A stretch of 64,000 nt of DNA, from assembly GCA_035510055.1 (NCBI GenBank), contig DATKHV010000099.1, forward strand, positions 29,826 to 93,825. The letters run 5' to 3'. This stretch comes from Candidatus Cybelea sp. Its GTDB lineage: Bacteria > Acidobacteriota > Terriglobia > Acidiferrales > UBA7541. A model generated the notes under the pieces. The model was not told the origin of the DNA, ran no database searches, and worked only from the letters and a program-made list of their open reading frames with translations. Within the stretch, counting starts at the first letter, position 1. Every line of letters begins with the position of its first letter. Shown here piece after piece: positions 4,761-62,646 of this stretch. A program made the translations under genes and the position numbers.

Positions 4761-7700
4761 ATGATGCGATGGAATGGTCTCCTGAAAATTACATTTGCGC
4801 TCCTGTGCGTCTTTCCTGCCGCTCGTTTTAGCAAAGCGCAGCAAGTTCCCGAGAGCACCTACCAGGAGATGCGCTGGCGCATGATCGGCCCGACGCGCGG
4901 CGGCCGTACTCGCGCCGCTTGCGGCGTGGCTAGTCAGCCGAATGTCTTCTATTTGGGCGCGGTCAATGGTGGCGTCTGGAAGTCCGACGATTTTGGCCGC
5001 ACCTGGACGCCCATCTTTGACTCGCAGTCCACGCAATCCATCGGCGCCATCGCCGTCGCTGTTTCCGATCCAAACATCGTTTACGTTTCGAGCGGCGAAG
5101 GCCTTGCGCGTCCCGATCTTTCCGTGGGCGATGGAATTTACAAGTCCAGCGATGCCGGCAAGACGTGGACGCACCTCGGCCTACAGAATGGGCAGGGAAT
5201 TCCTGCTCTGGCCGTCGATCCCCGCGACCCCAACCGCGTTTTTGCCGCCGTGCTCGGTCATCCCTATGGCCCGAACGACGAGCGCGGCATCTTTCTTTCC
5301 ACCGATGGCGGTCAGAATTGGCAAAAGGTGCTCTACAAGAGCGAGAACATCGGCGGTTCCGACGTGGAAATCGACCCCGCCAATCCCGATATCGTTTACG
5401 CCTCGTTGTGGGAAGTCCGTCTCGGCCCTTGGGAGGACGCAAATCAATACAGCGGCACTGGAGGCGGACTCTTCAAGTCCACCGACGGCGGCCAGACGTG
5501 GCACCCGCTGACAAATGGTTTGCCGAAGGGCATTATCCAAATTGACGTAGCCATTGCAGCCAGCCAGACCAGCCGTCTCTACGCCACCGTTGCGAGCGAG
5601 CGCGCCGACAATTCCCCTGGCTCCGAGGTCGGCATCTATCGTTCCGAGGATGCGGGCGAGCACTGGCAACGCATCACCACCGACACCAGGCCTGCGCTGC
5701 GCATCGGCGGCGGCGATCTCCCAGTCCCCCAAGTGGATCCGAAAAATCCCGACGTCGTCTACACCGCGAGCATCGTCACGATGAAATCCTCCGACGGCGG
5801 CAAAACCTGGCTGAGCCTCCGCGGCGCACCAGGCGGCGACGATTATCAAAACCTTTGGATTAATCCGAACTACCCGAGCATCATTCTGCTGTCAAGCGAT
5901 CAGGGCGCGCTCGTCACCGTCAATGGCGGCAAAACTTGGAGTTCCTGGTACAACCAAGCTACTGCCCAGCTCTATCATGTCCAGACCAGCTATTCGTTTC
6001 CCTATCTGGTTTGCAGCGGCCAGCAGGACAGTGGCTCCGTCTGCGTTTCGAGCCGCGGTAACGACGGTGAAATTACCTTTCGCGACTGGCATCCCGTTGG
6101 CGTGATTGAGTACGGTTACGCCGCGCCTGATCCCCTGAATCCAGACATTATTTATGGCGCCGGCCGCCGCGAAGTCTCGAAATATTCGCTTACCACCGGC
6201 CAGGTACAAAATGTTTCGCCCATTCCTCTCGCCGATCCTAAGTACCGCGCCGATCGCACTCAGCCCATTCTATTTTCGCCGGTCGATCCCCAGGTCTTGT
6301 ACTACGCCGCGAATTTTGTCTTCAAAACAACCGACGGAGGACAGACCTGGCAAACCATCAGCGGGGACCTCGCGCGCGAGCATTCCGGCATACCCGCAAG
6401 CCTCGGCAACACCGCCAGCAAAGACGCCAACGCCGACAAGCAACGTGGCGTCATCTACGCGCTTGCTCCGTCGTTCAAGAGCTTGAAGACTCTGTGGGCT
6501 GGAACGGATGACGGTCTGATCTGGACCACGCACGACGGCGGCGCCAATTGGAAAAATGTCACCCCGCCCGAACTTACTCCGTGGAGCAAAGTCACGCAAA
6601 TCGTCGTGTCACACTTCGACGACGAATCTGCCTACGCTTCGGTGAGCCGTTTTCGCATCGATGATCTTCATCCTTACATTTATCGCACCCATGACGACGG
6701 CCAGACCTGGCGCCTGATCACCAACGGCCTGCCCGACGACGTTCCCGTCGACACCGTGCGCGAAGATCCCATCCGCAAGGGTCTTTTGTTCGCCGGCACC
6801 GAAACGAGTGTGTGGGTCTCGTTCGACGACGGCGGCCACTGGCAGACTCTGCAACTCAATCTCCCGCACACTTCGATGCGCGATTTGTGGATTCACGACG
6901 ATGACCTGATCGTCGCCACTCATGGTCGCTCCTTCTGGATTCTCGACGACATCACGCCGCTCCGCCAGATCAATGGAAAAATGCAGAACGCCGAAGCCTT
7001 GATCTTCAAACCTGGTGTCGCTTACCGCGTCCGTCGCAGCACCAATCCGGATACGCCCATCCCCCCGGATGAGCCCACCGCCCAGAATCCTCCCGATGGC
7101 GCGGTGCTGGATTACTTCCTAGCGCGACCGGCTAATGGTCCCGTGTCACTCGAGATCCGCGATGCGCAAGGCAAACTCGTGCGCAGCTACGCCAGCACCG
7201 ACAAGCCCGGGGCGACCGAGGAAGAACTTGCCAAACAGCTGATTCCGACCTACTGGATTCAGAAACCCCAGGTGCTTTCGACCAGTGCGGGAATGCACCG
7301 GTGGGTTTGGGATCTCCGCTACGCCACCCCCAACTCCCCGCGCTACGACTATCCCATTTCCGCGGTTCCCGGCGACACGCCGCAAGTTCCTCAGGGTCCG
7401 CTGGCCTTGCCCGCACAATACACCGTGAAGCTTACGGTAAATGGTCACATCTATTCCGAGCCGCTCACTGTGAAAATGGACCCGCGCGTCAAGACCCCTG
7501 CCGCGGGCCTCGCGCAAATGTTTCAAATCGAGTCGCGCCTCGCGGCCATGATGAAGGAGAGTTCAGAAGCCTTGGCGGAAGCTCGCTCGGCGCGCGAGCA
7601 GTTGCAGAAGCAAGCCCAACAAGCAAGTGGAGCGGTAGCCGATGCGATCTCCGCCTTCGAAAAAAAGCTAGCCGCTGTTCTTGGCGGTGGCGGCGGAGGG

Positions 7701-11986: not shown

Positions 11987-12704
11987 AGTTGTTGACTTGA
12001 AATTATCCTCTGCCCAAGCCCATCTGTCCACTTGGGCCAGGTCTTGCGAACCGGTAGCGGCGTCCTTCCGACGGCGTCCCCGGTGTCGCCGCACCGTCGC
12101 CATCTTTCTTTCCGTTTTTCGCCATAGGGGCGGGGCTTGTTTACTTCGAGGCACCCGCAGGGCCCCGCCGCTATCCATCAGACGTTATCAACCTTGGCCC
12201 CGCAGCGCCTGATTGCAAGTAGCGGTTCACGCTTTTCTGTAAATGACGCGTCAGGGGTCCGAGCTTTGCTGATCGTTCGGAATCTCAGGAAACGGAAAAC
12301 GAATCCAGGGTACCTAAGATGGGTGTTCGTGCATTCCCCGGGAGCTTCTTCCATGCGGTTCACAAAATTTTCGGAATGCATTTCCAGTGTTTTCTACGGA
12401 GTTGCCGCGACTTCACGAGGGATAGGAAAGCAAGAGCTCGCTTCCTCATGCAAGTTCTTTCGTTTCATATCCTTACAAATTCTTTTGCACCCGAGAAAAA
12501 CGCAACCCTTTTCTTTTCAAGCAATTCCGAACTCTTTATGCCAAACACCGGGTGCGGGTGGGGGCCACGTCTTTCAAACCAAAAACTCCTCTCGCTGCTG
12601 TTCGTTTCATCACCAGTTCGCTACATTTTTATTTTTTTACTTCGCGCGTCCCGTGCTCACCGCTCCCTCCTCGTCTTGTGCTAGGCTTACTCGTGAGACC
12701 ACTC

Positions 12705-13847
12705 ATGAACCGCGGATCAGGGTTGCGCATCGGCAAAATTCTTGGTATTCCCATCTATCTCCACTCCACTTGGATTCTCATTTTTGCCGCCATCACCTAT
12801 ATCATCGCCTCGCAGTTCAAGCAGGCCCACCCGCTTTGGTCAGACATGCAGCATTGGACTGTCGGCGTCATCACCAGCCTGCTCTTCTTCGCCTCCGTTC
12901 TCTTCCACGAACTTGCCCACAGCGTGGTGGCCCAGCATTACCAGATTCGCGTCATTTCCATCACACTTTTTCTCTTCGGAGGCTTGGCGCGCATCGAGCG
13001 AGATCCTTCCAAGGCCATTCAGGAATTCAACATCGCCATTGCCGGACCGTTGGCCAGCGGCTTTCTCTCCGCCGCATTTTTTGCCTTGACCCTGCTCTTC
13101 TCTTCTAGCGAGACGGTCAGCGCGCTAGCTACATGGCTCTGCGGTATGAATGCGTTGCTGGCCTTCTTCAATCTCTTGCCGGGATTCCCTCTCGACGGTG
13201 GAAGAATTTTCCGCGCCATTGTTTGGGGCGCTACCAAGAGTTTCGACAAAGCAACGCGCGTCGCGGGCGCCAGCGGCAAAATCATCGCCTACACGATAAT
13301 CCTCTTTGGCGTATGGGGCGTTCTCCATGGCGACATACAAAAGCTGTGGACGGTTTTGATCGGCTGGTTCATTCTGAACGCCGCGCAAGAGAGCGTAGCT
13401 CAGGTGGCCGTCCGGGAAACGTTATCCGGGCTCAGTGCCGCCGACGTCATGAGCAAGGAAGTTCCTACCGTTCCCGGCCACATCACGCTCGAAGAATACA
13501 GCGCCGAAGTCTTGCGCACCGGCCGCCGCGTCCATCTGGTGGTCAACGACGACCGTTTCGTGGGCATGATGAACGTTCACACCCTCAATGCCATCTCGCG
13601 CGAAGAGTGGGCGCACAATTCCGTGCAAGCCGCCATGATCCCGCGCGAGAAAATTCTCTGGACCTCGCCCGACGAGCCTCTTCTGCGTTTGCTCGAACGA
13701 CTCCTGAGCGCCGATGTGAATCAAATGCCCGTGGTGAGCGGAGCCAGCGACGGCGCGCCGCAAATCGTCGGCATCGTCACGCGCGACTCCATTCTCCGCG
13801 TGATGCAAACGCGCACCGAACTCCGTCCTTTGGCCACGAGCAGATAG
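12705..13847 (+). CDS. Site-2 protease family M50 with C-terminal CBS pair
   Basis: The track ORF starts at 12552. The ATG at 12705 (MNRGSGLRIGKILGIPIYLHSTW) is preferred. It has the HELAHS zinc motif, the second motif NLLPGFPLDGGR, and a C-terminal CBS-like region (VMSKEVPTVPGH ... NQMPVVSG...IVGIVTRDSILRV). Confidence 0.9.
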   Translation: MNRGSGLRIGKILGIPIYLHSTWILIFAAITYIIASQFKQAHPLWSDMQHWTVGVITSLLFFASVLFHELAHSVVAQHYQIRVISITLFLFGGLARIERDPSKAIQEFNIAIAGPLASGFLSAAFFALTLLFSSSETVSALATWLCGMNALLAFFNLLPGFPLDGGRIFRAIVWGATKSFDKATRVAGASGKIIAYTIILFGVWGVLHGDIQKLWTVLIGWFILNAAQESVAQVAVRETLSGLSAADVMSKEVPTVPGHITLEEYSAEVLRTGRRVHLVVNDDRFVGMMNVHTLNAISREEWAHNSVQAAMIPREKILWTSPDEPLLRLLERLLSADVNQMPVVSGASDGAPQIVGIVTRDSILRVMQTRTELRPLATSR

Positions 13848-50704: not shown

Positions 50705-52330
<1,626 letters not shown>

Positions 52331-52390
52331 TCACCCTCCTGGGTGATGGAGCACTTCTCCGCCGTCCGAAGTCTTCGGCTCGGGTAAAAC

Positions 52391-52711
52391 CTACTTCTTG
52401 CCGGATGCCGCTTTGGTGATTCCGCTGACTTTCACCAGGATTTCTTCCTCACGGAGGATCAGGTATTCCTGGTCGTCGATGTTGATGTCGTTGCCCGTGT
52501 ATTTGCCGAACAAGATCCGGTCACCCACCTTCACATCGAGTGGGATGCGATGGCCTTTTTCAATCTTGCCGGCTCCGATGGCCATTACTTCGCCCTCATG
52601 AGGTTTTTCTTTCGCCGTATCGGGGATAATGATCCCGCCTTTCGCGGTTTCCTTCTCTTCTAACCTGCGTACAAGGACGCGGTCATGCAGGGGAGTGATA
52701 TTCACAGTCAT
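52391..52711 (-). CDS. groES: Co-chaperonin GroES (Cpn10)
   Basis: The ATG at 52711 ([37 protein letters not shown]...) follows a GGAGG RBS. It lies 66 nt upstream of groEL. Confidence 0.97.
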
Positions 52712-52777
52712 TTCTTGACCTCCATTCAATCCATTCCAAAACTCGAACAAGCAACTTTTTGACGCTCTAGGCCAACA

Positions 52778-55784: not shown

Positions 55785-56005
55785 GTGTTAAAGACGCGTA
55801 AAGTTGCAGCTTGCGGATTGCTTAGCGGCGGCATGGTCAAACGTACTGCGCGATCACGACCATACGCCAGTCCGGTTCGGCCCGAAGGGTTCCTATCAGT
55901 TGTTGTACTTCGTGTTTTATTTCTGGCTCGGCGTGACTCGCGCTGTCTGCGATCGCTTGACTTCATCAAGCAACACAAGATCGCATTCGCCCGCAAATCC
56001 AAACC

Positions 56006-56470
56006 CTACTTTTTCATCTTCCGTCTTCTGTTCTTATAGAGCGTCTCAAGCAGGTATTTGACCGACGCGCATTCCTGGATTACGGCTTCCAGCTTCGGGA
56101 TCGTGGCGTGCAACTCATTTTCCTCCACCACCCCGTCCGCTAGAGTGGTGGCAATGCTCTCCAGTGCCGAACCTACATCTTTCATGAGGTGGGAGATAAC
56201 TAAAAACTCTTTCTCCGATGTCACTTGCGGATCTGGAATCTTGAAAGCCACTCGTCCCGCCTGCGATTCGAGGAAATCTAAAGCTTCGAAATTCTTCAAG
56301 ACAACGCATATCTTCGGCAGCAGTTCTGCTGGGATGGGGCGATCCCCTCTGAGCCAATACATCAAGGAGCGATAGTTCGTCCCAAGCTGCTGCGCCAACA
56401 GCCGAGTGTCGTACTCGGCCCTTGTCTCCACAATCTGGCTCAGTACGTTGGGTAGCGTCTTTGCAGCCAC
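56006..56470 (-). CDS. Small HTH-like regulator (phage CII/Cro-like N-terminus), divergent from the PspA-ABC operon
   Basis: 154-aa ORF. DTRLLAQQLGTNYRSLMYWLRGDRPIPAELLPKICVVL resembles a DNA-binding HTH. The C-terminus is helical. Confidence 0.55.
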   Translation of the reverse strand: MAAKTLPNVLSQIVETRAEYDTRLLAQQLGTNYRSLMYWLRGDRPIPAELLPKICVVLKNFEALDFLESQAGRVAFKIPDPQVTSEKEFLVISHLMKDVGSALESIATTLADGVVEENELHATIPKLEAVIQECASVKYLLETLYKNRRRKMKK

Positions 56471-56496
56471 AGTCTGTTCCTTTATTGTGAGTCTGT

Positions 56497-56525
56497 CCGT
56501 TCAAATAAGGCATCATTTTGAACGG
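56497..56525. promoter_or_regulatory. Perfect 9-bp inverted repeat 27 nt upstream of the 56470 start
   Basis: ccgttcaaa (56497-56505), an 11-nt spacer, then tttgaacgg (56517-56525). The same 370-bp AT-rich divergent region carries three CTATAGG-like words (56562, 56621, 56711). Confidence 0.4.
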
Positions 56526-56841
56526 TGAAAGTGTGCATTGTAACTGAATTGCATGCTTTCCCTATAGGCGGTTTAAAATAGCGTCGTCAAGACAAGGGAG
56601 ACGGCCAGTTTTATTAAATGCTATAAGGTGGCAATTTCCTTATTGAAAAAACATGCTGGCACAGTCTACGATGGCCGCGTATCTCGCATAGAACACAAAG
56701 GTTTCCTTATCTATAGGATACAATGCACGCGGACAGTAGACTGATTTGGAAACGTAAGTCCGGTCGTGCTGGGCCTCGGAGTCGTGAAGTGGTGTGCTCC
56801 TCGGCCCCGCGAGCAGGACAAAAGAAGTAAGGACGTGACCC

Positions 56842-57468
56842 ATGCCCTTCATGGACCTGATCAAGAAGGCCATTTTTGAAGAGGAACCGCTGGCCCAGCA
56901 GCCTGCCAAGCCAGCTACCAGTTCAGGAACGGCGCGGCCCCTCGAGCCGGCAGCTCCTTCCTATGCCCCCATGGGTACGCGCGACAACCAGTTCTACACT
57001 CGGCTGGCCAAGCAGACGGACCTCTCTGCGGTTCCGGAACTGGCCAAGATCGAAGCTTTTGCTGCGCCACTGGCCTCCGTAATCACGGATAAAGCATTGA
57101 GGTACAAGGCGGCCCTGGCCACAGCCCAATCGCAGGGTGGCCTGACGAAAGACGCGATCTTGAAAGGCTTTGACGCTTTACTGAATGTTCTGAATTCCTC
57201 GGCGAGCACGTTCAACAAGCAAACCGACGAAGTGTCACGAACGGAAGTCGATGCCAAGATTGCCCAGATCAGCGATGTCAATGAAACCATTCAGCAAAAA
57301 CAGAAAGAGATCGCCGACCTCCAGCAGCAAGTGAAATCTCTGCAATCGCAGACGGAAGTATCGCGTTCAAAACTGCAAGAGGCGAAGAGCAATTTTGCGG
57401 CGGCGCTGGAACGCCGACGTGCCGAGATTCAGCAACAACGCAAGGAATTCGAAACGATTTTGGGATAG
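56842..57468 (+). CDS. Coiled-coil protein with amphipathic N-terminus (first gene of the PspA-ABC operon)
   Basis: 208-aa ORF preceded by AAGGA. The N-terminus is MPFMDLIKKAIFEEE, followed by a P/A-rich linker and a heptad-rich C-terminus (ETIQQKQKEIADLQQQVKSLQSQTEVSRSKLQEAKSNF). Confidence 0.6.
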   Translation: MPFMDLIKKAIFEEEPLAQQPAKPATSSGTARPLEPAAPSYAPMGTRDNQFYTRLAKQTDLSAVPELAKIEAFAAPLASVITDKALRYKAALATAQSQGGLTKDAILKGFDALLNVLNSSASTFNKQTDEVSRTEVDAKIAQISDVNETIQQKQKEIADLQQQVKSLQSQTEVSRSKLQEAKSNFAAALERRRAEIQQQRKEFETILG

Positions 57469-57477
57469 GGAGACACC

Positions 57478-58509
57478 ATGGCAACCACTCCAGGTTCCCC
57501 GGTATTGCAGGGCTTGAAGAATTTCTGGCAACGGCCCGAAGGAACAGTCGGGAAAGTCGTGCTGGTCCTCGGCGGCATCGCGGTGGCGTACGGTTTCGTG
57601 CAGATCCTCCCGTTCTTAATCGCGGCGGCGACCGATACATTGCACCTCGCCCTTTTGATCGGGGCAATTTTAGTGTTCCTTTTCATCGTCACGGACAAGC
57701 GTGTCCGAACGCTGGCGAAGCTCATGTTCCAAAGCGTTATGCGGTATCTGACGGGCTTGTTCATTGAGTTGGACCCCATCGGCATCCTCAAGAACTACAT
57801 CGGGGAGATGAAAAAAAATCTCGCCATCATGGACGAGCAGCTCGGAAACCTGAATGGCTCGATCCGCACGCTCCAGAATCAGATCGATGCGAACCAAAAA
57901 GATGCTGAGCACAGCATGGCGCTGGCCAACCAGGCCGATAAGAAGATGGCTAGCGGCGGGCTGACCTCCCTCGATCAGCAGCAGTACGTGTCTGCCAAGG
58001 TCACCAACCAGCGCCACGCCGCGAGCCTGATCAATATCAATAAGTCGCTCACTGATCTGCGCGACAAGCTGAAGATTCTCTATGACCAGCTTGTCCGCTG
58101 GAGGGCCACGGCAGAGTTCCAGGTCACCGACAAAGAAAACCGCGTCAGCGAAGAAGAGATGCGGCGGAAGGCGCTGAAAAAGGCCTATTCCGTCTTCCAG
58201 GCGGCGAAGAAGATCTTTCGCGGCGATCCAGTGGCCAACCAGATTTACGACCAGACGCTGGAGTATCTGGCGGATGACGCCGGGCAGATGCTGGGAGAGA
58301 TGGAAGATTTCAATCGGCTTGCCAACAAACTGATGACCAACATGGATTTGGAAACCGGGGCCATCAATGACGAAGCCGTCAGGCAATTGTCAGAGTTTCA
58401 GCAAAAGCTTTTGCCGGCATCGGTAACCGCAGTGCCGGGCGGCGTACCGGAGCAGTCTTCGGCTGTGCCCGCTAATAAGAAAGACGATTACAGAGATTTG
58501 ATCAAGTAA
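57478..58509 (+). CDS. 2-TM membrane-anchored PspA/IM30 (ESCRT-III-like) coiled-coil protein
   Basis: 343-aa ORF, 9 nt after the upstream stop, with a GGGAG RBS. Two hydrophobic helices are present (VVLVLGGIAVAYGFVQILPFLIAAA and LHLALLIGAILVFLFIV). ELDPIGILKNYIGEMKKNLAIMDEQLGNLNGSIRTLQNQIDANQKDAEHSMALANQA then aligns by eye with E. coli PspA [36 protein letters not shown]. Confidence 0.6.
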   Translation: MATTPGSPVLQGLKNFWQRPEGTVGKVVLVLGGIAVAYGFVQILPFLIAAATDTLHLALLIGAILVFLFIVTDKRVRTLAKLMFQSVMRYLTGLFIELDPIGILKNYIGEMKKNLAIMDEQLGNLNGSIRTLQNQIDANQKDAEHSMALANQADKKMASGGLTSLDQQQYVSAKVTNQRHAASLININKSLTDLRDKLKILYDQLVRWRATAEFQVTDKENRVSEEEMRRKALKKAYSVFQAAKKIFRGDPVANQIYDQTLEYLADDAGQMLGEMEDFNRLANKLMTNMDLETGAINDEAVRQLSEFQQKLLPASVTAVPGGVPEQSSAVPANKKDDYRDLIK

Positions 58510-58533
58510 TTGGTAGGCGGAGGGAAAGTTCAA

Positions 58534-60381
58534 ATGTTTAGCGATAAAATTTCGACACCACCAACGGGGCATCGGCTGAAGCCCGGAGCAAAGATTGTTC
58601 TGCTCCTGGGTCTCGGGGCGGTCCTGTTCTTCGGTTTCCGGACGGCCGTGAGCCGCGGCTGGATTCCTGCCCCGGGCATTGCCAAGGCCCTCATTCCCTC
58701 AAAGGCCGCTCTGCCGGACTTGAAGGAAGCGGTCGTGGCCAACGTCGAGCCAGCGCCGTACCCAGAAGCAACTACGGCGTCAGTGAAAGCGCCGCTGATT
58801 CGCACCGAAATATGGGCTTGGAACGCCCAGATGAACTATATCTATGCCAATGGCGGCCCGGACACCACGCGGAACAGTTTGATGGAGAAGCACGGAGCAA
58901 ACGTGAAGTTAATCCGTCAGGATGACACCAGCCAGATGCAGAACGATTTGATTGCCTGCGCCAAGGAGCTCCACGACGGCGCAAGCCAGTGTTCCGCCGG
59001 CGCAAATTACGTTCTTATTATGGGTGACGGCTCCGGCCAGTTTTTTGCCGCCGTCAATCCCCAACTTAAAAAGCTCGACAACGGCGCTGGCGAATATATC
59101 GCGCAGGTCATTGGCTCCACCGGATACTCCCGCGGTGAAGACAAACTGATGGGCCCGCCGGAATGGAAGTCGGACGCGCAAGCCGCCAAGGGCGGCTTGG
59201 TTGCTGGAGTCCTTCGCGACGGCGATTGGAATATCGCCATGAAGTGGGCCGCAGACAACCAGATCAAGAACAATCCAGACGAAAAAACATGGGACCCCGA
59301 CGCTCTCAATTGGGTCAATGCTCCGGACTACATCAAGGCCGCGGAAATCTACAACGCGAATACCTGCGAAGACCGCAAAGTGGTACACGATGGTCGGCTG
59401 ACCGGAGAATCAAAAAACGTCTGTGTCAACGGCGTCGTCACTTGGACGCCGGGCGACGTAAACGTGGCCCACGGACGTGGCGGGCTTGTCTCCATCGTCT
59501 CTTCGAAGCAGTACCGCTCGCAGATGCCCGACGTCATTATTGGCATCAAGAAGTTTAATCAAGACCATCGCAACGAAGTTCAAGGAATGCTGGCGGCGAG
59601 TTTCGAAGCTGCGGATCAATTGAAGGCTTATCCGGAAGCTCTGAAGCGCGCAGCAGCGATCAGCGCAAAGGTATACAACGAGCAGAACGGCGAGTATTGG
59701 CTGAAGTACTACCAGGGAACTCGCGAGCAGGACAAAACCGGAAACATGGTGGACCTCGGTGGCTCTGCGGTCAACAATCTGAACGACAATCTGCTTTTGT
59801 TTGGTTTGCAGCCCGGTGCCAACAACAACTTTCGCTCCACCTACACGGTGTTCGGAAATATCGCCACGCAGCAATACCCCGCACTCTTCAAGGATGCCAA
59901 CAAAATTCCCGACGTGAAAGAGATTCTCGACACTTCCTATGTTCTCGGCGCCTCATCGATGCTCTCGCAGACTGGCGCCGAAGCCGACGTCGCCAGCTTC
60001 AGTTCAAGCGGGGACACTGGCACCGTCGTTTCGAAGCGCGACTGGAGCATCGAATTCGACACCGGCAAAGCTTCCTTCACGTCTGACGGTGAACGCAAGA
60101 TGTACGAGATCAAAGACGACTTGGCGATTGCCGGCGCTTTGTTCGTCACCTTGAACGGGCACACCGACAATACCGGCACTCGCGAAGGGAACATGGACTT
60201 GGCCGAGAGGCGCGCCCAGGCCGTCCGTGATTGGCTACAGAGAAAAGCTCCCGCGAACTTCCCCGACAGCCGTTTCCGCATTCATGCCTATGGCGACTCC
60301 AAGCCACTGGCATCGAACGCTACAGCCGAAGGCCGAGCAAAGAACCGACGCGTAGAAATCATTCTGTCGGGCAAGGAATAG
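58534..60381 (+). CDS. Signal-anchored periplasmic-binding-protein-like domain fused to C-terminal OmpA peptidoglycan-binding domain
   Basis: The ATG at 58534 follows GGAGGG. One TM helix (IVLLLGLGAVLFFGF), then about 430 aa of type-2 SBP-like (NMT1/NitT-TauT-like) sequence. The canonical OmpA_C domain is LNGHTDNTGTREGNMDLAERRAQAVRDWLQ...GDSKPLASNATAEGRAKNRRVEIIL. Confidence 0.8.
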   Translation: MFSDKISTPPTGHRLKPGAKIVLLLGLGAVLFFGFRTAVSRGWIPAPGIAKALIPSKAALPDLKEAVVANVEPAPYPEATTASVKAPLIRTEIWAWNAQMNYIYANGGPDTTRNSLMEKHGANVKLIRQDDTSQMQNDLIACAKELHDGASQCSAGANYVLIMGDGSGQFFAAVNPQLKKLDNGAGEYIAQVIGSTGYSRGEDKLMGPPEWKSDAQAAKGGLVAGVLRDGDWNIAMKWAADNQIKNNPDEKTWDPDALNWVNAPDYIKAAEIYNANTCEDRKVVHDGRLTGESKNVCVNGVVTWTPGDVNVAHGRGGLVSIVSSKQYRSQMPDVIIGIKKFNQDHRNEVQGMLAASFEAADQLKAYPEALKRAAAISAKVYNEQNGEYWLKYYQGTREQDKTGNMVDLGGSAVNNLNDNLLLFGLQPGANNNFRSTYTVFGNIATQQYPALFKDANKIPDVKEILDTSYVLGASSMLSQTGAEADVASFSSSGDTGTVVSKRDWSIEFDTGKASFTSDGERKMYEIKDDLAIAGALFVTLNGHTDNTGTREGNMDLAERRAQAVRDWLQRKAPANFPDSRFRIHAYGDSKPLASNATAEGRAKNRRVEIILSGKE

Positions 60382-60391
60382 GAAACCCTCG

Positions 60392-61252
60392 GTGATCACC
60401 ATGAAGCCGGCGGCCGGGAGTATTGCTGCAAGTGCGTCCGCAGTCGGCCGACGGGTCAGCTTCCTGCACGACGTACTCGGTGCGTTTTCTCCGAACCGGG
60501 TGATTTCGAAAGCGGCGTTCCGGTTCATCGTGGTCTTCCAGATTGCGGTATTGCTGCTGGTGTGGGCGACATCGACCTATGTATTCCTGCCGAAGCCACT
60601 GGATGTTTGGCGCGCCTTTGTTGACCTTTGGAACAATGAGGGCTTGGGCCAGGAGCTGATTGTCAGCTTCCTCTTGAACGTGCAAGCCATGGCCTGGGCG
60701 ACGGTGATCTCACTGGGGCTTGCCTATTTGACCGTTGTTCCGGTCTTCCAACCCATCGCCCACGCAGTTTCCAAGGGCAGGTTTCTCGGCATGGTGGGAC
60801 TCACCTTTTTCTTCACCATCATTTTCGCCAGTGGGCACCGCTTGAAAGTAAGCCTGCTCGTCTTCGGAGTCGCCGTCTTCTTTGTCACCAGCATGATCGA
60901 CGTGGTGGCGCAGGTGCCGAAGGAAAAGTTTGATCTGGCCCGCACCCTGCGTATGGGCGAGTGGCGGGTCGTTTGGGAAGTGATCGTACTCGGCCGGGCC
61001 GACGCGGCTTTCGATGCCATGCGCCAAAACGCCGCAATGGGATGGATGATGCTCACAATGGTCGAAGGCATCTCGCGCTCGGAGGGCGGCATCGGCGCGT
61101 TACTTCTCAATCAGAACAAACATTTTCGCCTCGAAGCCGTCTTCGCCATTCAAATCGCCATCCTGCTGATTGGCTTGTTTCAAGACTATGCGCTGGGCTT
61201 GGCCAAGAAATTCCTCTTTCCCTACGCGGACTTGCAATTGGAAAAGAGGTAG
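60392..61252 (+). CDS. ABC transporter permease (NitT/TauT-like)
   Basis: 286-aa ORF (GTG 60392, alternative ATG 60401). It has six hydrophobic helices and an EAA-loop-like segment (FDLARTLRMGEWRVVWEVIVLGRADAAFDAMRQNAAMGW). Confidence 0.8.
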   Translation: MITMKPAAGSIAASASAVGRRVSFLHDVLGAFSPNRVISKAAFRFIVVFQIAVLLLVWATSTYVFLPKPLDVWRAFVDLWNNEGLGQELIVSFLLNVQAMAWATVISLGLAYLTVVPVFQPIAHAVSKGRFLGMVGLTFFFTIIFASGHRLKVSLLVFGVAVFFVTSMIDVVAQVPKEKFDLARTLRMGEWRVVWEVIVLGRADAAFDAMRQNAAMGWMMLTMVEGISRSEGGIGALLLNQNKHFRLEAVFAIQIAILLIGLFQDYALGLAKKFLFPYADLQLEKR

Positions 61253-61279
61253 TGGTTTCAGGATTTGTGGGGATAACGC

Positions 61280-62104
61280 TTGCCCGAACGATGTAAATAT
61301 ACCGACACGCTTCTCAAGGTTGACCACGTCAGCCTGTCTTACGACGACAAGGTCATTCTTCGCGACGTCAACGCGGAGATTCGCGACATCGTGCGTGCTG
61401 ACTGTACTCAGGGCCAAGTCGTCGGCTTTCTCGGCCCCTCGGGCATCGGCAAGACCCAGCTCTTTAGAATCATCGCAGGACTAAATCAGCCCACTGCGGG
61501 ACAGGTGTTGGTCAATTCCACGCTCACTCCCGTCAAAGCCGGAATGGTTGGCGTAGTCGCGCAAAATTATCCACTGTTCGAAAATCGCACGATTTTCAGC
61601 AATTTGATCCTGGCCGCGAAGCAGATCGAAAAAAATAACGACACCGCCCATGAAAAAACATTGAAGTACCTGAAGCGCTTGGACATGCTCGACTGCTCGC
61701 AGCTTTACCCTGCGCAGATTTCCGGCGGCCAGCGCCAGAGAATCGCCATCGCCCAGCAGCTTCTATGCAGCGAGCATTTTCTACTGATGGACGAGCCATT
61801 CTCCGGCCTCGACCTGGTCATGGAAGGCAAGGTCTGCGAGTTAATCAACGAGATTGCCTGCCTGGATGAGCTGAACACCATCATCGTTGTGACTCACGAC
61901 GTGACCGCTGCGGCTACGGTGGCGGACCATTTGTGGTTAATGGGGCGCGATCGCGATGCTGGAGGGAATATTGTTCCGGGTGCACGAATTCAGGAGACCT
62001 ACGATCTGATCGAGCGCGACCTGTGCTGGCATCCCGGCATCACCAACTCCTCTAAGTTTCTGGAATTTGTCCGCGAAGTCAAAGAAAGATTTCAGACGCT
62101 CTGA
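61280..62104 (+). CDS. ABC transporter ATP-binding protein
   Basis: 274-aa ORF with an uncertain TTG start. Walker A is GPSGIGKTQ, Q-loop VAQNYPLF, signature ISGGQRQRIAIAQQL, Walker B FLLMDEPFSGLD, and H-loop VVTHDV. Confidence 0.85.
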   Translation: MPERCKYTDTLLKVDHVSLSYDDKVILRDVNAEIRDIVRADCTQGQVVGFLGPSGIGKTQLFRIIAGLNQPTAGQVLVNSTLTPVKAGMVGVVAQNYPLFENRTIFSNLILAAKQIEKNNDTAHEKTLKYLKRLDMLDCSQLYPAQISGGQRQRIAIAQQLLCSEHFLLMDEPFSGLDLVMEGKVCELINEIACLDELNTIIVVTHDVTAAATVADHLWLMGRDRDAGGNIVPGARIQETYDLIERDLCWHPGITNSSKFLEFVREVKERFQTL

Positions 62105-62283
62105 ACCACGCCGCTTCCCTGGCGCGCCTCGGTTCCGCCCGGGGCAGAAACACGCACAAAGAATAGTAAAAGGGAATCGCTCTTAGCCGCAGGGTGCGGC
62201 TGCAGCACCCGCGCAATCCCGAACCCCGCAAGTCGACCTGTTCACCTTGACATTCTACTGGAAGCCGTGTAGCTTCGCCTAGA

Positions 62284-62646
62284 ATGTCTACTAAAGAAGA
62301 ACGCGAACGCATCGAACTGCTACAGGGCACCCTGGACCTGCTGATTCTCCGCACGCTGCTACTGGGGCCGGTGCACGGCCACGCTATCGCCAAGACGATC
62401 GAGTTCAATTCCGACGAGGTCTTGCAGGTCGAGCAAGGATCTTTGTATCCGGCGTTGCACCGGCTCATCAAGCGGGAATGGATTTCGGTCCAAGAGGGAA
62501 CTTCGGAGAACAACAGGCGAGCCAAATTCTACCGCTTGACGCCCAAGGGCAAACGCCAACTTATGCTGGAGACCCGCAAATGGGACAAGCTGGCCGGAGC
62601 GATCGCGCGGATTCTGAGGCCGACGAAGCAGGAGGGCGAATCATGA
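62284..62646 (+). CDS. PadR-family transcriptional regulator
   Basis: 120-aa [59 protein letters not shown] is canonical PadR. Confidence 0.9.

Follow-up and report, generated by a model that had tools for sequence, protein, structure and literature searches.

A mobile five-gene cassette of large phages and bacteria that pairs a probable membrane-anchored PspA relative with a predicted wall-tethered ABC importer

It is still debated how proteins of the PspA/ESCRT-III type come to be recruited and controlled when neither the classic Psp nor the classic Lia system is at work, and the question is raised in a particular form by a locus in which a PspA-like gene stands in one row with the parts of an ATP-binding cassette (ABC) importer. 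The locus lies in a 64,000-nucleotide (nt) stretch of DNA, the window, from Candidatus Cybelea sp. (contig DATKHV010000099.1, positions 29,826 to 93,825). A sequence-only reading of the window had described five open reading frames (ORF1 to ORF5) on the same strand and only 9-27 nt apart. Coordinates (Table 1) and spacing were both confirmed, with gaps of 9, 24, 10 and 27 nt, and the domain content of the five proteins, judged from Pfam and NCBIfam searches, motifs and hydropathy, was as described. The analysis reported here shows that ORF1 and ORF2 are the core pair of this cassette, that the transporter is a frequent yet dispensable addition, and that the cassette, which is mobile, belongs chiefly to the genomes of large phages. 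The last two points, the separability of the ORF1-ORF2 pair and the phage-borne, mobile nature of the cassette, go beyond the earlier reading.

ORF2 opens with a conserved, cytoplasmic FWQRPEG motif, followed by a hairpin of two transmembrane (TM) helices; next comes a helical hairpin resembling that of PspA/IM30, and the protein ends in a disordered tail with Y-x-D-L-I at its C-terminus. The family comprises 1444 clusters at 50% identity, is uniformly about 340 residues (aa) in length, and has relatives in at least 589 species in a scan of one genome per species. Common to its members are the FWQRPEG motif, the two TM helices and a near-invariant (I/L)DPIGILK sequence that opens the helical part; within it, P100 is invariant and D99 near-invariant. 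The C-terminus (58470-58509), where Y-x-D-L-(I/F) with a near-invariant Y338 follows the disordered tail, resembles a docking peptide.

The relationship of ORF2 to PspA was assessed by profile and structure comparison. The window protein matched the Pfam PspA_IM30 family (PF04012) at 19.6 bits (E 7e-4), with residues 99-246 aligned to profile positions 23-151. PF04012 was the sole Pfam family to recur among ORF2 relatives, in 9 of 23 and then in 17 of 84 diverse members (E<=0.01; best E 7.3e-8), whereas any other family matched at most four of the 84. In hhalign comparisons, ORF2 against one PspA sequence gave an E of 0.027, the ORF2 family against a three-sequence PspA profile gave 1.2e-4 (55% probability), and the family against a 19-sequence PspA/Vipp1 profile, which is still narrow since the homolog search gave only close relatives of three seeds, gave 5.7e-5 (65.7% probability, 127 columns). 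The score therefore rises with a richer PspA profile and the register stays constant, ORF2 98-244 lying on PspA 23-150 (alpha1-alpha3). This register agrees across Pfam, the single-sequence hhalign comparison and both hhalign profiles, and its anchor is the conserved D-P that opens helix 1; indeed, the earlier pairing of ORF2 helix 1, LDPIGILKNYIGEMKKNL, with PspA helix 1 was recovered by hhalign in the same register. A coiled-coil control, the ORF1 family, scored far lower against PspA (13% probability, 36 columns). In the AlphaFold2 (AF2) model ORF2 forms helices at 100-158 and 164-244 (predicted local distance difference test, pLDDT, 80-89) and then at 252-288 and 296-311, and the helix lengths agree with PspA alpha1 and alpha2/3. 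The best PDB match of this model in Foldseek was Vipp1 (6zvr; prob 1.0, E 0.026), and several Vipp1/PspA entries aligned to it over most of their length, with TM-scores by target of 0.54-0.61.

Several results weigh against this relationship. The Pfam score falls under the PF04012 gathering score of 33.9 bits, and the ORF2 sequence and family profiles, when run against PDB sequences, returned coiled-coil noise and neither PspA nor Vipp1. No Foldseek match reached E<=0.001, all being at 0.026 or above with large root-mean-square deviations, and helical bundles of toxins and chemoreceptors were interspersed with the Vipp1/PspA entries; the whole model itself is of moderate confidence (pLDDT 64.5). 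A comparison with Snf7, proposed in the sequence-only reading, gave no match for the window ORF2 (PF03357, E<=0.1), and Snf7 was not in the 25 best of the 43 Pfam families matched at E<=0.01 by the 84 ORF2-family members. The amphipathic helix alpha0 is likewise not in ORF2, in which two TM segments precede the PspA-like region instead. Because of the sub-threshold score and the lack of alpha0, ORF2 is a divergent relative and not a PF04012 member by curated criteria. Of the earlier assignment to PspA/IM30, what stands is a remote and consistent alignment from helix 1 onward, and none of the outcomes that the sequence-only reading had named as refuting it was encountered. Taken together, ORF2 probably belongs, as a remote member, to the PspA/ESCRT-III superfamily, a TM hairpin replacing the amphipathic alpha0, and, since two TM helices take the place of alpha0, it is predicted to be permanently membrane-bound.

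ORF1 gave generic coiled-coil noise in Pfam and NCBIfam and no annotated family, and PHROGs contained no family for ORF1 or ORF2, the copies in the Ralstonia jumbo phage RsoM2USA included. The window protein starts with a motif, FMDLIKKAIFEEE, that is followed by a Pro/Ala-rich linker and a conserved helical and coiled-coil domain. Members of the family have in common an N-terminal hydrophobic-K-x-hydrophobic-F pattern with acidic residues, an FDY...MDE...KSA...T.G.TK helical core and a coiled coil; the low-complexity linker is limited to the long forms. The N-terminal motif (56845-56883), like the end of ORF2, resembles a docking peptide. In 68 of 80 genome loci (genome counts here and below are for the 80 best loci from the one-genome-per-species scan) ORF1 immediately precedes ORF2, as it does in 28/28 first-scan IMG/VR loci and in three GenBank phages. 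The idea that ORF1 is a second PspA/Snf7 paralog was considered and rejected, hhalign giving 8-13% against PspA and 30% against the ORF2 family, and Pfam generic coiled coils only. ORF1 is a separate family and the usual coiled-coil partner of ORF2.

The remaining three genes encode the transporter. ORF3 has a single TM segment (aa 15-33), and its AF2 model (pLDDT 77) runs from the TM helix through a disordered linker, a binding-protein domain and a short linker to an OmpA domain. The combination of a solute-binding-like region with OmpA_C, as first described from the sequence, was borne out on both sides. The binding domain has an NrtA-type fold by Foldseek (2g29, E 4e-9, TM-score by target 0.61), followed by CmpA, TauA, SsuA and the thiamin binding protein 4nmy; the window-type domain gave no sequence-level family match. 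The OmpA domain (PF00691) scored 64 bits against a cut-off of 27.2, matched TagL and OmpA structures in the PDB at E 4e-19, and carries the conserved D...R peptidoglycan-contact motif, GHTDNTGTREGNMDLAERRAQAV, so that peptidoglycan binding is predicted. Two sequence classes of ORF3 exist, of about 600 aa (the window type) and about 515 aa (SsuA-like, in Bacteroidota and Lak phages), which are 24-27% identical, and the OmpA fusion is present in both. The shorter class, also seen in Geobacter, matched SsuA_fam (4e-24), NMT1/Phosphonate-bd, a putative urea binding protein and TauA, the SsuA_fam, urea and TauA matches all being sub-cut-off.

ORF4 matched BPD_transp_1 (PF00528) weakly (17.8 bits against a cut-off of 26.4, E 0.003) and has an EAA-like loop, DLARTLRMGEWRVVWEVIVL. 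Its best NCBIfam match was the NitT/TauT-type permease SaoP (E 7e-10), and a Bacteroidota homolog (locus L001; related loci are cited by such numbers) matched SaoP at 4e-26 and then TauC and SsuC. Together with the NrtA/TauA/SsuA type of fold of ORF3, this agrees with the NitT/TauT-like permease first proposed. ORF5 likewise proved to be an ABC ATPase with all motifs intact: Walker A GPSGIGKT, Q-loop VAQ, signature ISGGQ, Walker B FLLMDEP and H-loop IVVTH, with 91 bits to ABC_tran (PF00005). ORF3-5 are predicted to encode a NitT/TauT-class importer of ABC type I. Its substrate cannot be transferred from those families, because all sequence matches fall far under the equivalog cut-offs.

In some Bacteroidota a 231-aa heme-oxygenase-like protein (L001, 11664-12359; also L072 and L076) lies between the permease and the ATPase. 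It matched Pfam TENA_THI-4, and its best NCBIfam match was the CADD family of putative folate-metabolism proteins (3e-23), with thiaminase II at 1e-8; the insert could hint at the importer substrate in that lineage. Thiamine-pyrimidine salvage as a general role was rejected, as the best match is CADD, no thiamine pyrophosphate riboswitch was found, and neither the window nor the viral loci contain the gene. A different insertion, a 144-aa ORF with no Pfam match, was seen between ORF4 and ORF5 in L012 (11808-12239), a locus otherwise collinear with the window cassette and encoding proteins 87-97% identical to those of the window.

The five genes were then followed across genomes, a survey that the sequence-only reading had called for, and were found to be co-conserved across phyla. 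Each of the five window proteins has a homolog in a Bacteroidota locus of the same order, and at least 25 complete genome loci and over 50 viral contigs show the five-gene order, which is why the arrangement is not due to chance. ORF3, ORF4 and ORF5 lie 3' of ORF2 in 25 of the 80 genome loci, and five more are partial or cut by contig ends. Every Acidobacteriota locus has the full module; beyond that phylum it occurs in Proteobacteria, in Chitinimonas and Geobacter, and in a subset of Bacteroidota, among which Tenacibaculum xiamenense WJ-1 is a cultured carrier. By comparison, 50 of the 80 loci, mostly from Saprospiraceae, have no transporter within 8 kb of ORF1-ORF2, and most of these consist of a short-form ORF1 and ORF2 among unrelated neighbours. 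In a neighbour-joining (NJ) distance tree of ORF2 the transporter-less forms make up a nested, derived clade, which suggests, in a tree without support values, secondary loss of the transporter. The gene architecture is maintained despite the differing sequence class of the binding protein.

It is in viral genomes that the cassette was most regularly found complete. Homologs of ORF2 were identified in RsoM2USA and in 15 Lak megaphage genomes, and the ORF3 binding domain in the huge phage LR756500.1. Family hidden Markov models detected all five genes, in order, in Lak-A1 (Table 1) and LR756500.1; RsoM2USA has the ORF1-ORF2 pair only, as genes 55 and 54. The product of its gene 54, which the authors of that genome likened to a 'phage shock protein A' from Lewinella (PMC8504454), belongs to the ORF2 family. 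In IMG/VR, contigs recovered through ORF2 had ORF1 in every case (28/28) and the full module in 25 of 26 evaluable. When the search was made through ORF3 instead (61 loci), ORF2 was present in 51/55, ORF1 in 50/55, and ORF4 and ORF5 in 56/58 evaluable loci. Many of the module-bearing viral contigs are 100-530 kb long, with GC contents of 0.30-0.63, and the flanks of 15 IMG/VR loci match 132 PHROG families, for example HNH endonucleases, DNA ligase, primase/helicase, endonuclease VII and RNA ligase.

The nearest relative of the window cassette outside Acidoferrum is on a 148-kb metagenome contig (L004/L005), where many small genes without Pfam matches surround it. Immediately upstream there is an adenylosuccinate-synthase homolog, and between the permease and ATPase genes are a SpoU methylase and several small ORFs. 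The region (features at 5155-6483 and 12165-12767) looks phage-like.

In the lineage of the window the mobile cassette has a defined extent. Nucleotide homology between the window and related contigs ends at the cassette borders given in Table 1 and takes in the regulator and the five genes only. This regulator, which is divergent to the operon, matched Pfam Phage_CP76 (E 1e-7) and PHROG 101, 'CII-like transcriptional activator' (E 7.5e-11); it is kept beside the operon in L010-L013 and L016 although the remaining flanks differ, and is a member of the conserved cassette in the window's lineage. Of the unrelated flanks, those of L010 carry genes for PIN and HipA toxins, and those of L011 a DDE transposase. 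At the cassette borders in the window no terminal repeats, tRNA or integrase were detected. The viral branches of the ORF2 tree are deep and diverse; both acidobacterial clades are shallow and nested among them. The window copy was probably exchanged with phages; the direction of transfer is one that we infer. Two considerations count against the phage interpretation: the IMG/VR contigs may include misclassified host DNA, and the NJ tree is a rough distance tree. On two contigs labelled Candidatus Limnocylindria and Candidatus Saccharimonadales (L010, L015) the cassette is 74-93% identical to the window at the nucleotide level and plainly acidobacterial in its sequence, and these labels reflect either mis-binning or mislabelling of soil metagenome-assembled genomes, or recent transfer.

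Tentatively, and as the likeliest of the readings considered, we favour a horizontally mobile envelope cassette made up of two coupled sub-modules, a PspA-like membrane scaffold and a wall-pinned importer. In this model ORF2, held in the inner membrane by its two-TM hairpin, would form with ORF1 a scaffold on the cytoplasmic face of the membrane, and the two proteins, presumably with ORF2 polymerising, would gather beneath it and make it more stable or alter its shape. ORF3 would be tethered to the inner membrane by its TM helix and to peptidoglycan by its OmpA-like domain; being tethered at both ends, it would fix the transporter at a wall-attached site, where ORF3-5 may take up a small polar solute. 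The two halves, if coupled, would jointly keep the envelope intact, energised and supplied under envelope stress. Large phages could draw the same service from the cassette during long infections, and in the window Acidobacterium a chromosomal copy would operate under the divergent CII-like regulator. An envelope-spanning joint machine for stress handling, as the sequence-only reading had imagined it, is what we infer as well. Set against this picture are the lack of any AAA+ disassembly ATPase in the cassette and a search for riboswitches and other RNA elements that found none.

The closest competitor, unlikely in our judgement but deserving of serious weight, holds that two independent functions travel together. 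ORF1-ORF2 would be a self-sufficient membrane-stabilising pair, ORF3-5 a nutrient importer, in phages an auxiliary metabolic set for a sulfonate-, nitrate-, urea- or phosphonate-like solute, and the linkage a matter of co-transfer. Since 50/80 genome loci, and RsoM2USA too, have the pair and no transporter, the membrane scaffold does not need the importer and the halves could be independent. All three transporter components are of an ordinary NitT/TauT type, the carriage of uptake genes by phages is established, a 2026 preprint reports a complete ABC cassette in phage roc5 (bioRxiv 10.64898/2026.05.02.722434), and the CADD/TenA-like enzyme within the transporter part of some Bacteroidota suggests metabolic use. 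However, the viral transporter is almost never found without ORF1-ORF2 and keeps the same order and tight spacing, an order that persists across differing binding-protein classes. Both classes, moreover, have the OmpA fusion, for which a plain nutrient importer has no obvious need, and the transporter-less forms are nested and derived in the tree. More doubtful is the suggestion that ORF2 is unrelated to PspA/ESCRT-III, a membrane-anchored coiled coil such as a transporter scaffold or regulatory subunit whose PspA signal is composition noise. It would account for sequence matches that are all under curated thresholds, for generic coiled coils in place of PspA among PDB sequences, for the mixed Foldseek list and for hhalign probabilities of only 55-66%. 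It would account less well for the recurrence of PF04012 in 17 members, for an identical register in Pfam and hhalign anchored on D-P, for the agreement in helix lengths, or for the far lower scores of the ORF1 control, and Ravi et al. (2024; PMC11237479) independently place such proteins in the PspA/Snf7 superfamily.

Ranked lower again, and improbable, is a self-contained, phage-borne membrane-remodelling machine, in which an ORF1/ORF2 ESCRT-III-like polymer, lodged permanently in the inner membrane, would be positioned, and perhaps driven, by a wall-tethered ABC complex standing in for an AAA+ ATPase of the Vps4 type. In long infections it would serve jumbo and mega phages in remodelling or resealing the inner membrane of the host, bacteria would have captured the cassette repeatedly, and the 'importer' would be mainly a peptidoglycan-anchored mechanical or sensing device and not a nutrient pump. 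Least probable of all, we consider, is a conflict system at the envelope, for superinfection exclusion or anti-phage defence, that blocks DNA entry or senses envelope damage. Carriage by phages, variable chromosomal regions near PIN and HipA toxins and a transposase, the CII-like regulator and an OmpA domain resembling ZorB/MotB-type anchors would all fit it, but for none of the five proteins did PADLOC give a specific match, the similarity being of a generic OmpA, ABC or coiled-coil kind, and no effector such as a nuclease, NADase or pore is recognisable. The transporter parts are of nutrient-importer type, and in Acidobacteriaceae the module lies amid housekeeping genes on Mb-scale contigs. 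A known defence system was rejected on the PADLOC result.

The features of the cassette are listed in Table 1.

Table 1. Coordinates of the cassette and its parts; positions refer to the window unless an accession is given.
Feature	Coordinates	Strand	Details
ORF1	56842-57468	+	208 aa
ORF2	57478-58509	+	343 aa
ORF2 transmembrane hairpin	57556-57693	+	aa 27-45 and 54-72; hydropathy, helical in AF2 model
ORF2 PspA-like region	57769-58209	+	aa 98-244; hhalign, AF2, Foldseek
ORF3	58534-60381	+	615 aa; alternative TTG start at 58510 gives 623 aa
ORF3 periplasmic binding-protein domain	58786-59973	+	about aa 85-480; NrtA/CmpA/TauA/SsuA-like fold
ORF3 OmpA_C domain	60055-60348	+	aa 508-605; motif TD...N..L..RRA
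ORF4	60392-61252	+	286 aa; GTG start
ORF5	61280-62104	+	274 aa; TTG start
CII-like transcriptional regulator	56006-56470	-	154 aa; divergent to operon; Phage_CP76, PHROG 101
Divergent intergenic region	56471-56841	none	371 nt; presumed promoter and operator region
Cassette extent	55974-62216	none	blastn of L010, L011 and L013 against window: 84-93% nt identity, flanks unrelated
Lak-A1 module (Prevotella phage, L121)	MK250016.1, 351789-368646		complete ABC importer with ORF1/ORF2 homologs

Within the divergent intergenic region a sigma-70-like site (56643-56672, + strand) is a consensus match only, and shuffled sequence gives such sites as often. Downstream of ORF5 no terminator was supported, the predicted fold being no better than those of shuffled sequences, and no riboswitch or any other Rfam family was found in the window or in eight loci. 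A PadR-family regulator (62284-62646) lies directly 3' of the cassette, outside the conserved block. A 238-aa antisense ORF (57670-58386, - strand) falls entirely within ORF2 and is most likely a by-product of codon composition, because ORF2 is strongly conserved. The GC content falls to about 0.51 at 52.5-57 kb of the window, against 0.55-0.59 elsewhere. A groES-groEL pair (50705-52750, - strand) is located 4 kb upstream of the cassette, and the window copy is therefore in a chromosomal context.

If the favoured reading is correct, the ORF2 family solves the recruitment problem by a built-in membrane anchor and a dedicated partner, repeatedly joined to a wall-pinned ABC importer. Its presence in large phages, gut Lak megaphages among them, would mean that these bring along their own unit for membrane maintenance and uptake, and the phage cassette offers a concrete handle on how an ESCRT-III-like protein acts during infection. 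Its role is directly testable because there are cultured carriers, T. xiamenense WJ-1 for the full module and RsoM2USA for the pair.

When compared with PspA, IM30, Vipp1 and LiaH, ORF2 is probably alike in the remote alignment of residues 98-244 to alpha1-alpha3 with its D-P start, in a predicted hairpin followed by shorter helices, and in its predicted placement on the cytoplasmic face. It differs in having FWQRPEG and two TM helices instead of alpha0, and another C-terminal tail, with Y-x-D-L-I; the cassette is without PspB, PspC, PspF and LiaI, ORF2 usually being paired with the unrelated ORF1 family. The transporter half shares with the NitT/TauT importers (NrtABCD, CmpABCD, TauABC, SsuABC, ThiXYZ) the binding-protein fold and a single ATPase with its motifs intact, and its permease, which has an EAA-like loop, is putatively of their BPD_transp_1 type. 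Unlike the binding proteins of those systems, ORF3 is neither free nor lipid-anchored and has an N-terminal TM helix and a C-terminal OmpA-like wall anchor. That arrangement, in which an OmpA-like domain with the D/R motif pins a membrane machine to the wall, is found in MotB/PomB, TagL/TssL and ZorB; in ORF3, however, a 400-residue solute-binding insert lies between the two anchors, and the partner is an ABC importer rather than an ion-driven stator or a secretion system.

Among phages, PspA-superfamily genes and, rarely, transporter genes have been reported in large genomes. In Jug phages a pspA-like gene adjoins terD (PMC12880540), and in roc5, a phage of ammonia-oxidising bacteria (AOB), a sugar (arabinose)-type cassette was presented as the first complete phage ABC transporter (bioRxiv 10.64898/2026.05.02.722434); Lak genomes deposited before that preprint already contain a complete ABC importer. 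The five-gene module, the ORF1 partner and the wall-anchored binding protein are undescribed in the Jug, roc5 and RsoM2USA papers, and a description of the module was not found in the literature searched on jumbo phages, megaphages or Lak phages in connection with PspA, ESCRT-III or ABC transporters.

The closest known arrangement comes from the comparative survey of the PspA/Snf7 superfamily by Ravi et al. (2024; mSystems, PMC11237479), to which the sequence-only reading had alluded and which bears that reading out. It reports operons where PspA and TM-anchored Snf7 homologs, together with a double AAA+ ATPase, stand beside a PBPB+OmpA protein, a permease and an ABC ATPase, and its authors propose a link between membrane remodelling and solute transport in which OmpA binds peptidoglycan. 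Their table row for Candidatus Handelsmanbacteria OGG56892.1 reads X -> PspA -> PBPB+OmpA -> TM(s) -> ABC-ATPase -> TM+Snf7 -> inactive-AAA+AAA. The survey covers this arrangement in one sentence and one table row, and is silent on phages, on the ORF1 family and on the stand-alone ORF1-ORF2 pair. The window cassette, unlike the Handelsmanbacteria operon, stops at the ABC ATPase without TM-Snf7 and double AAA+, its next gene being PadR, and neither of these two genes was present 3' of ORF5 in L006-L008 or L001-L003. As compared through the published table row, the first five genes correspond to ORF1-ORF5 in order and domain content, and because that row begins with the same gene order, the cassette is a variant of a kind of operon that has been described computationally.

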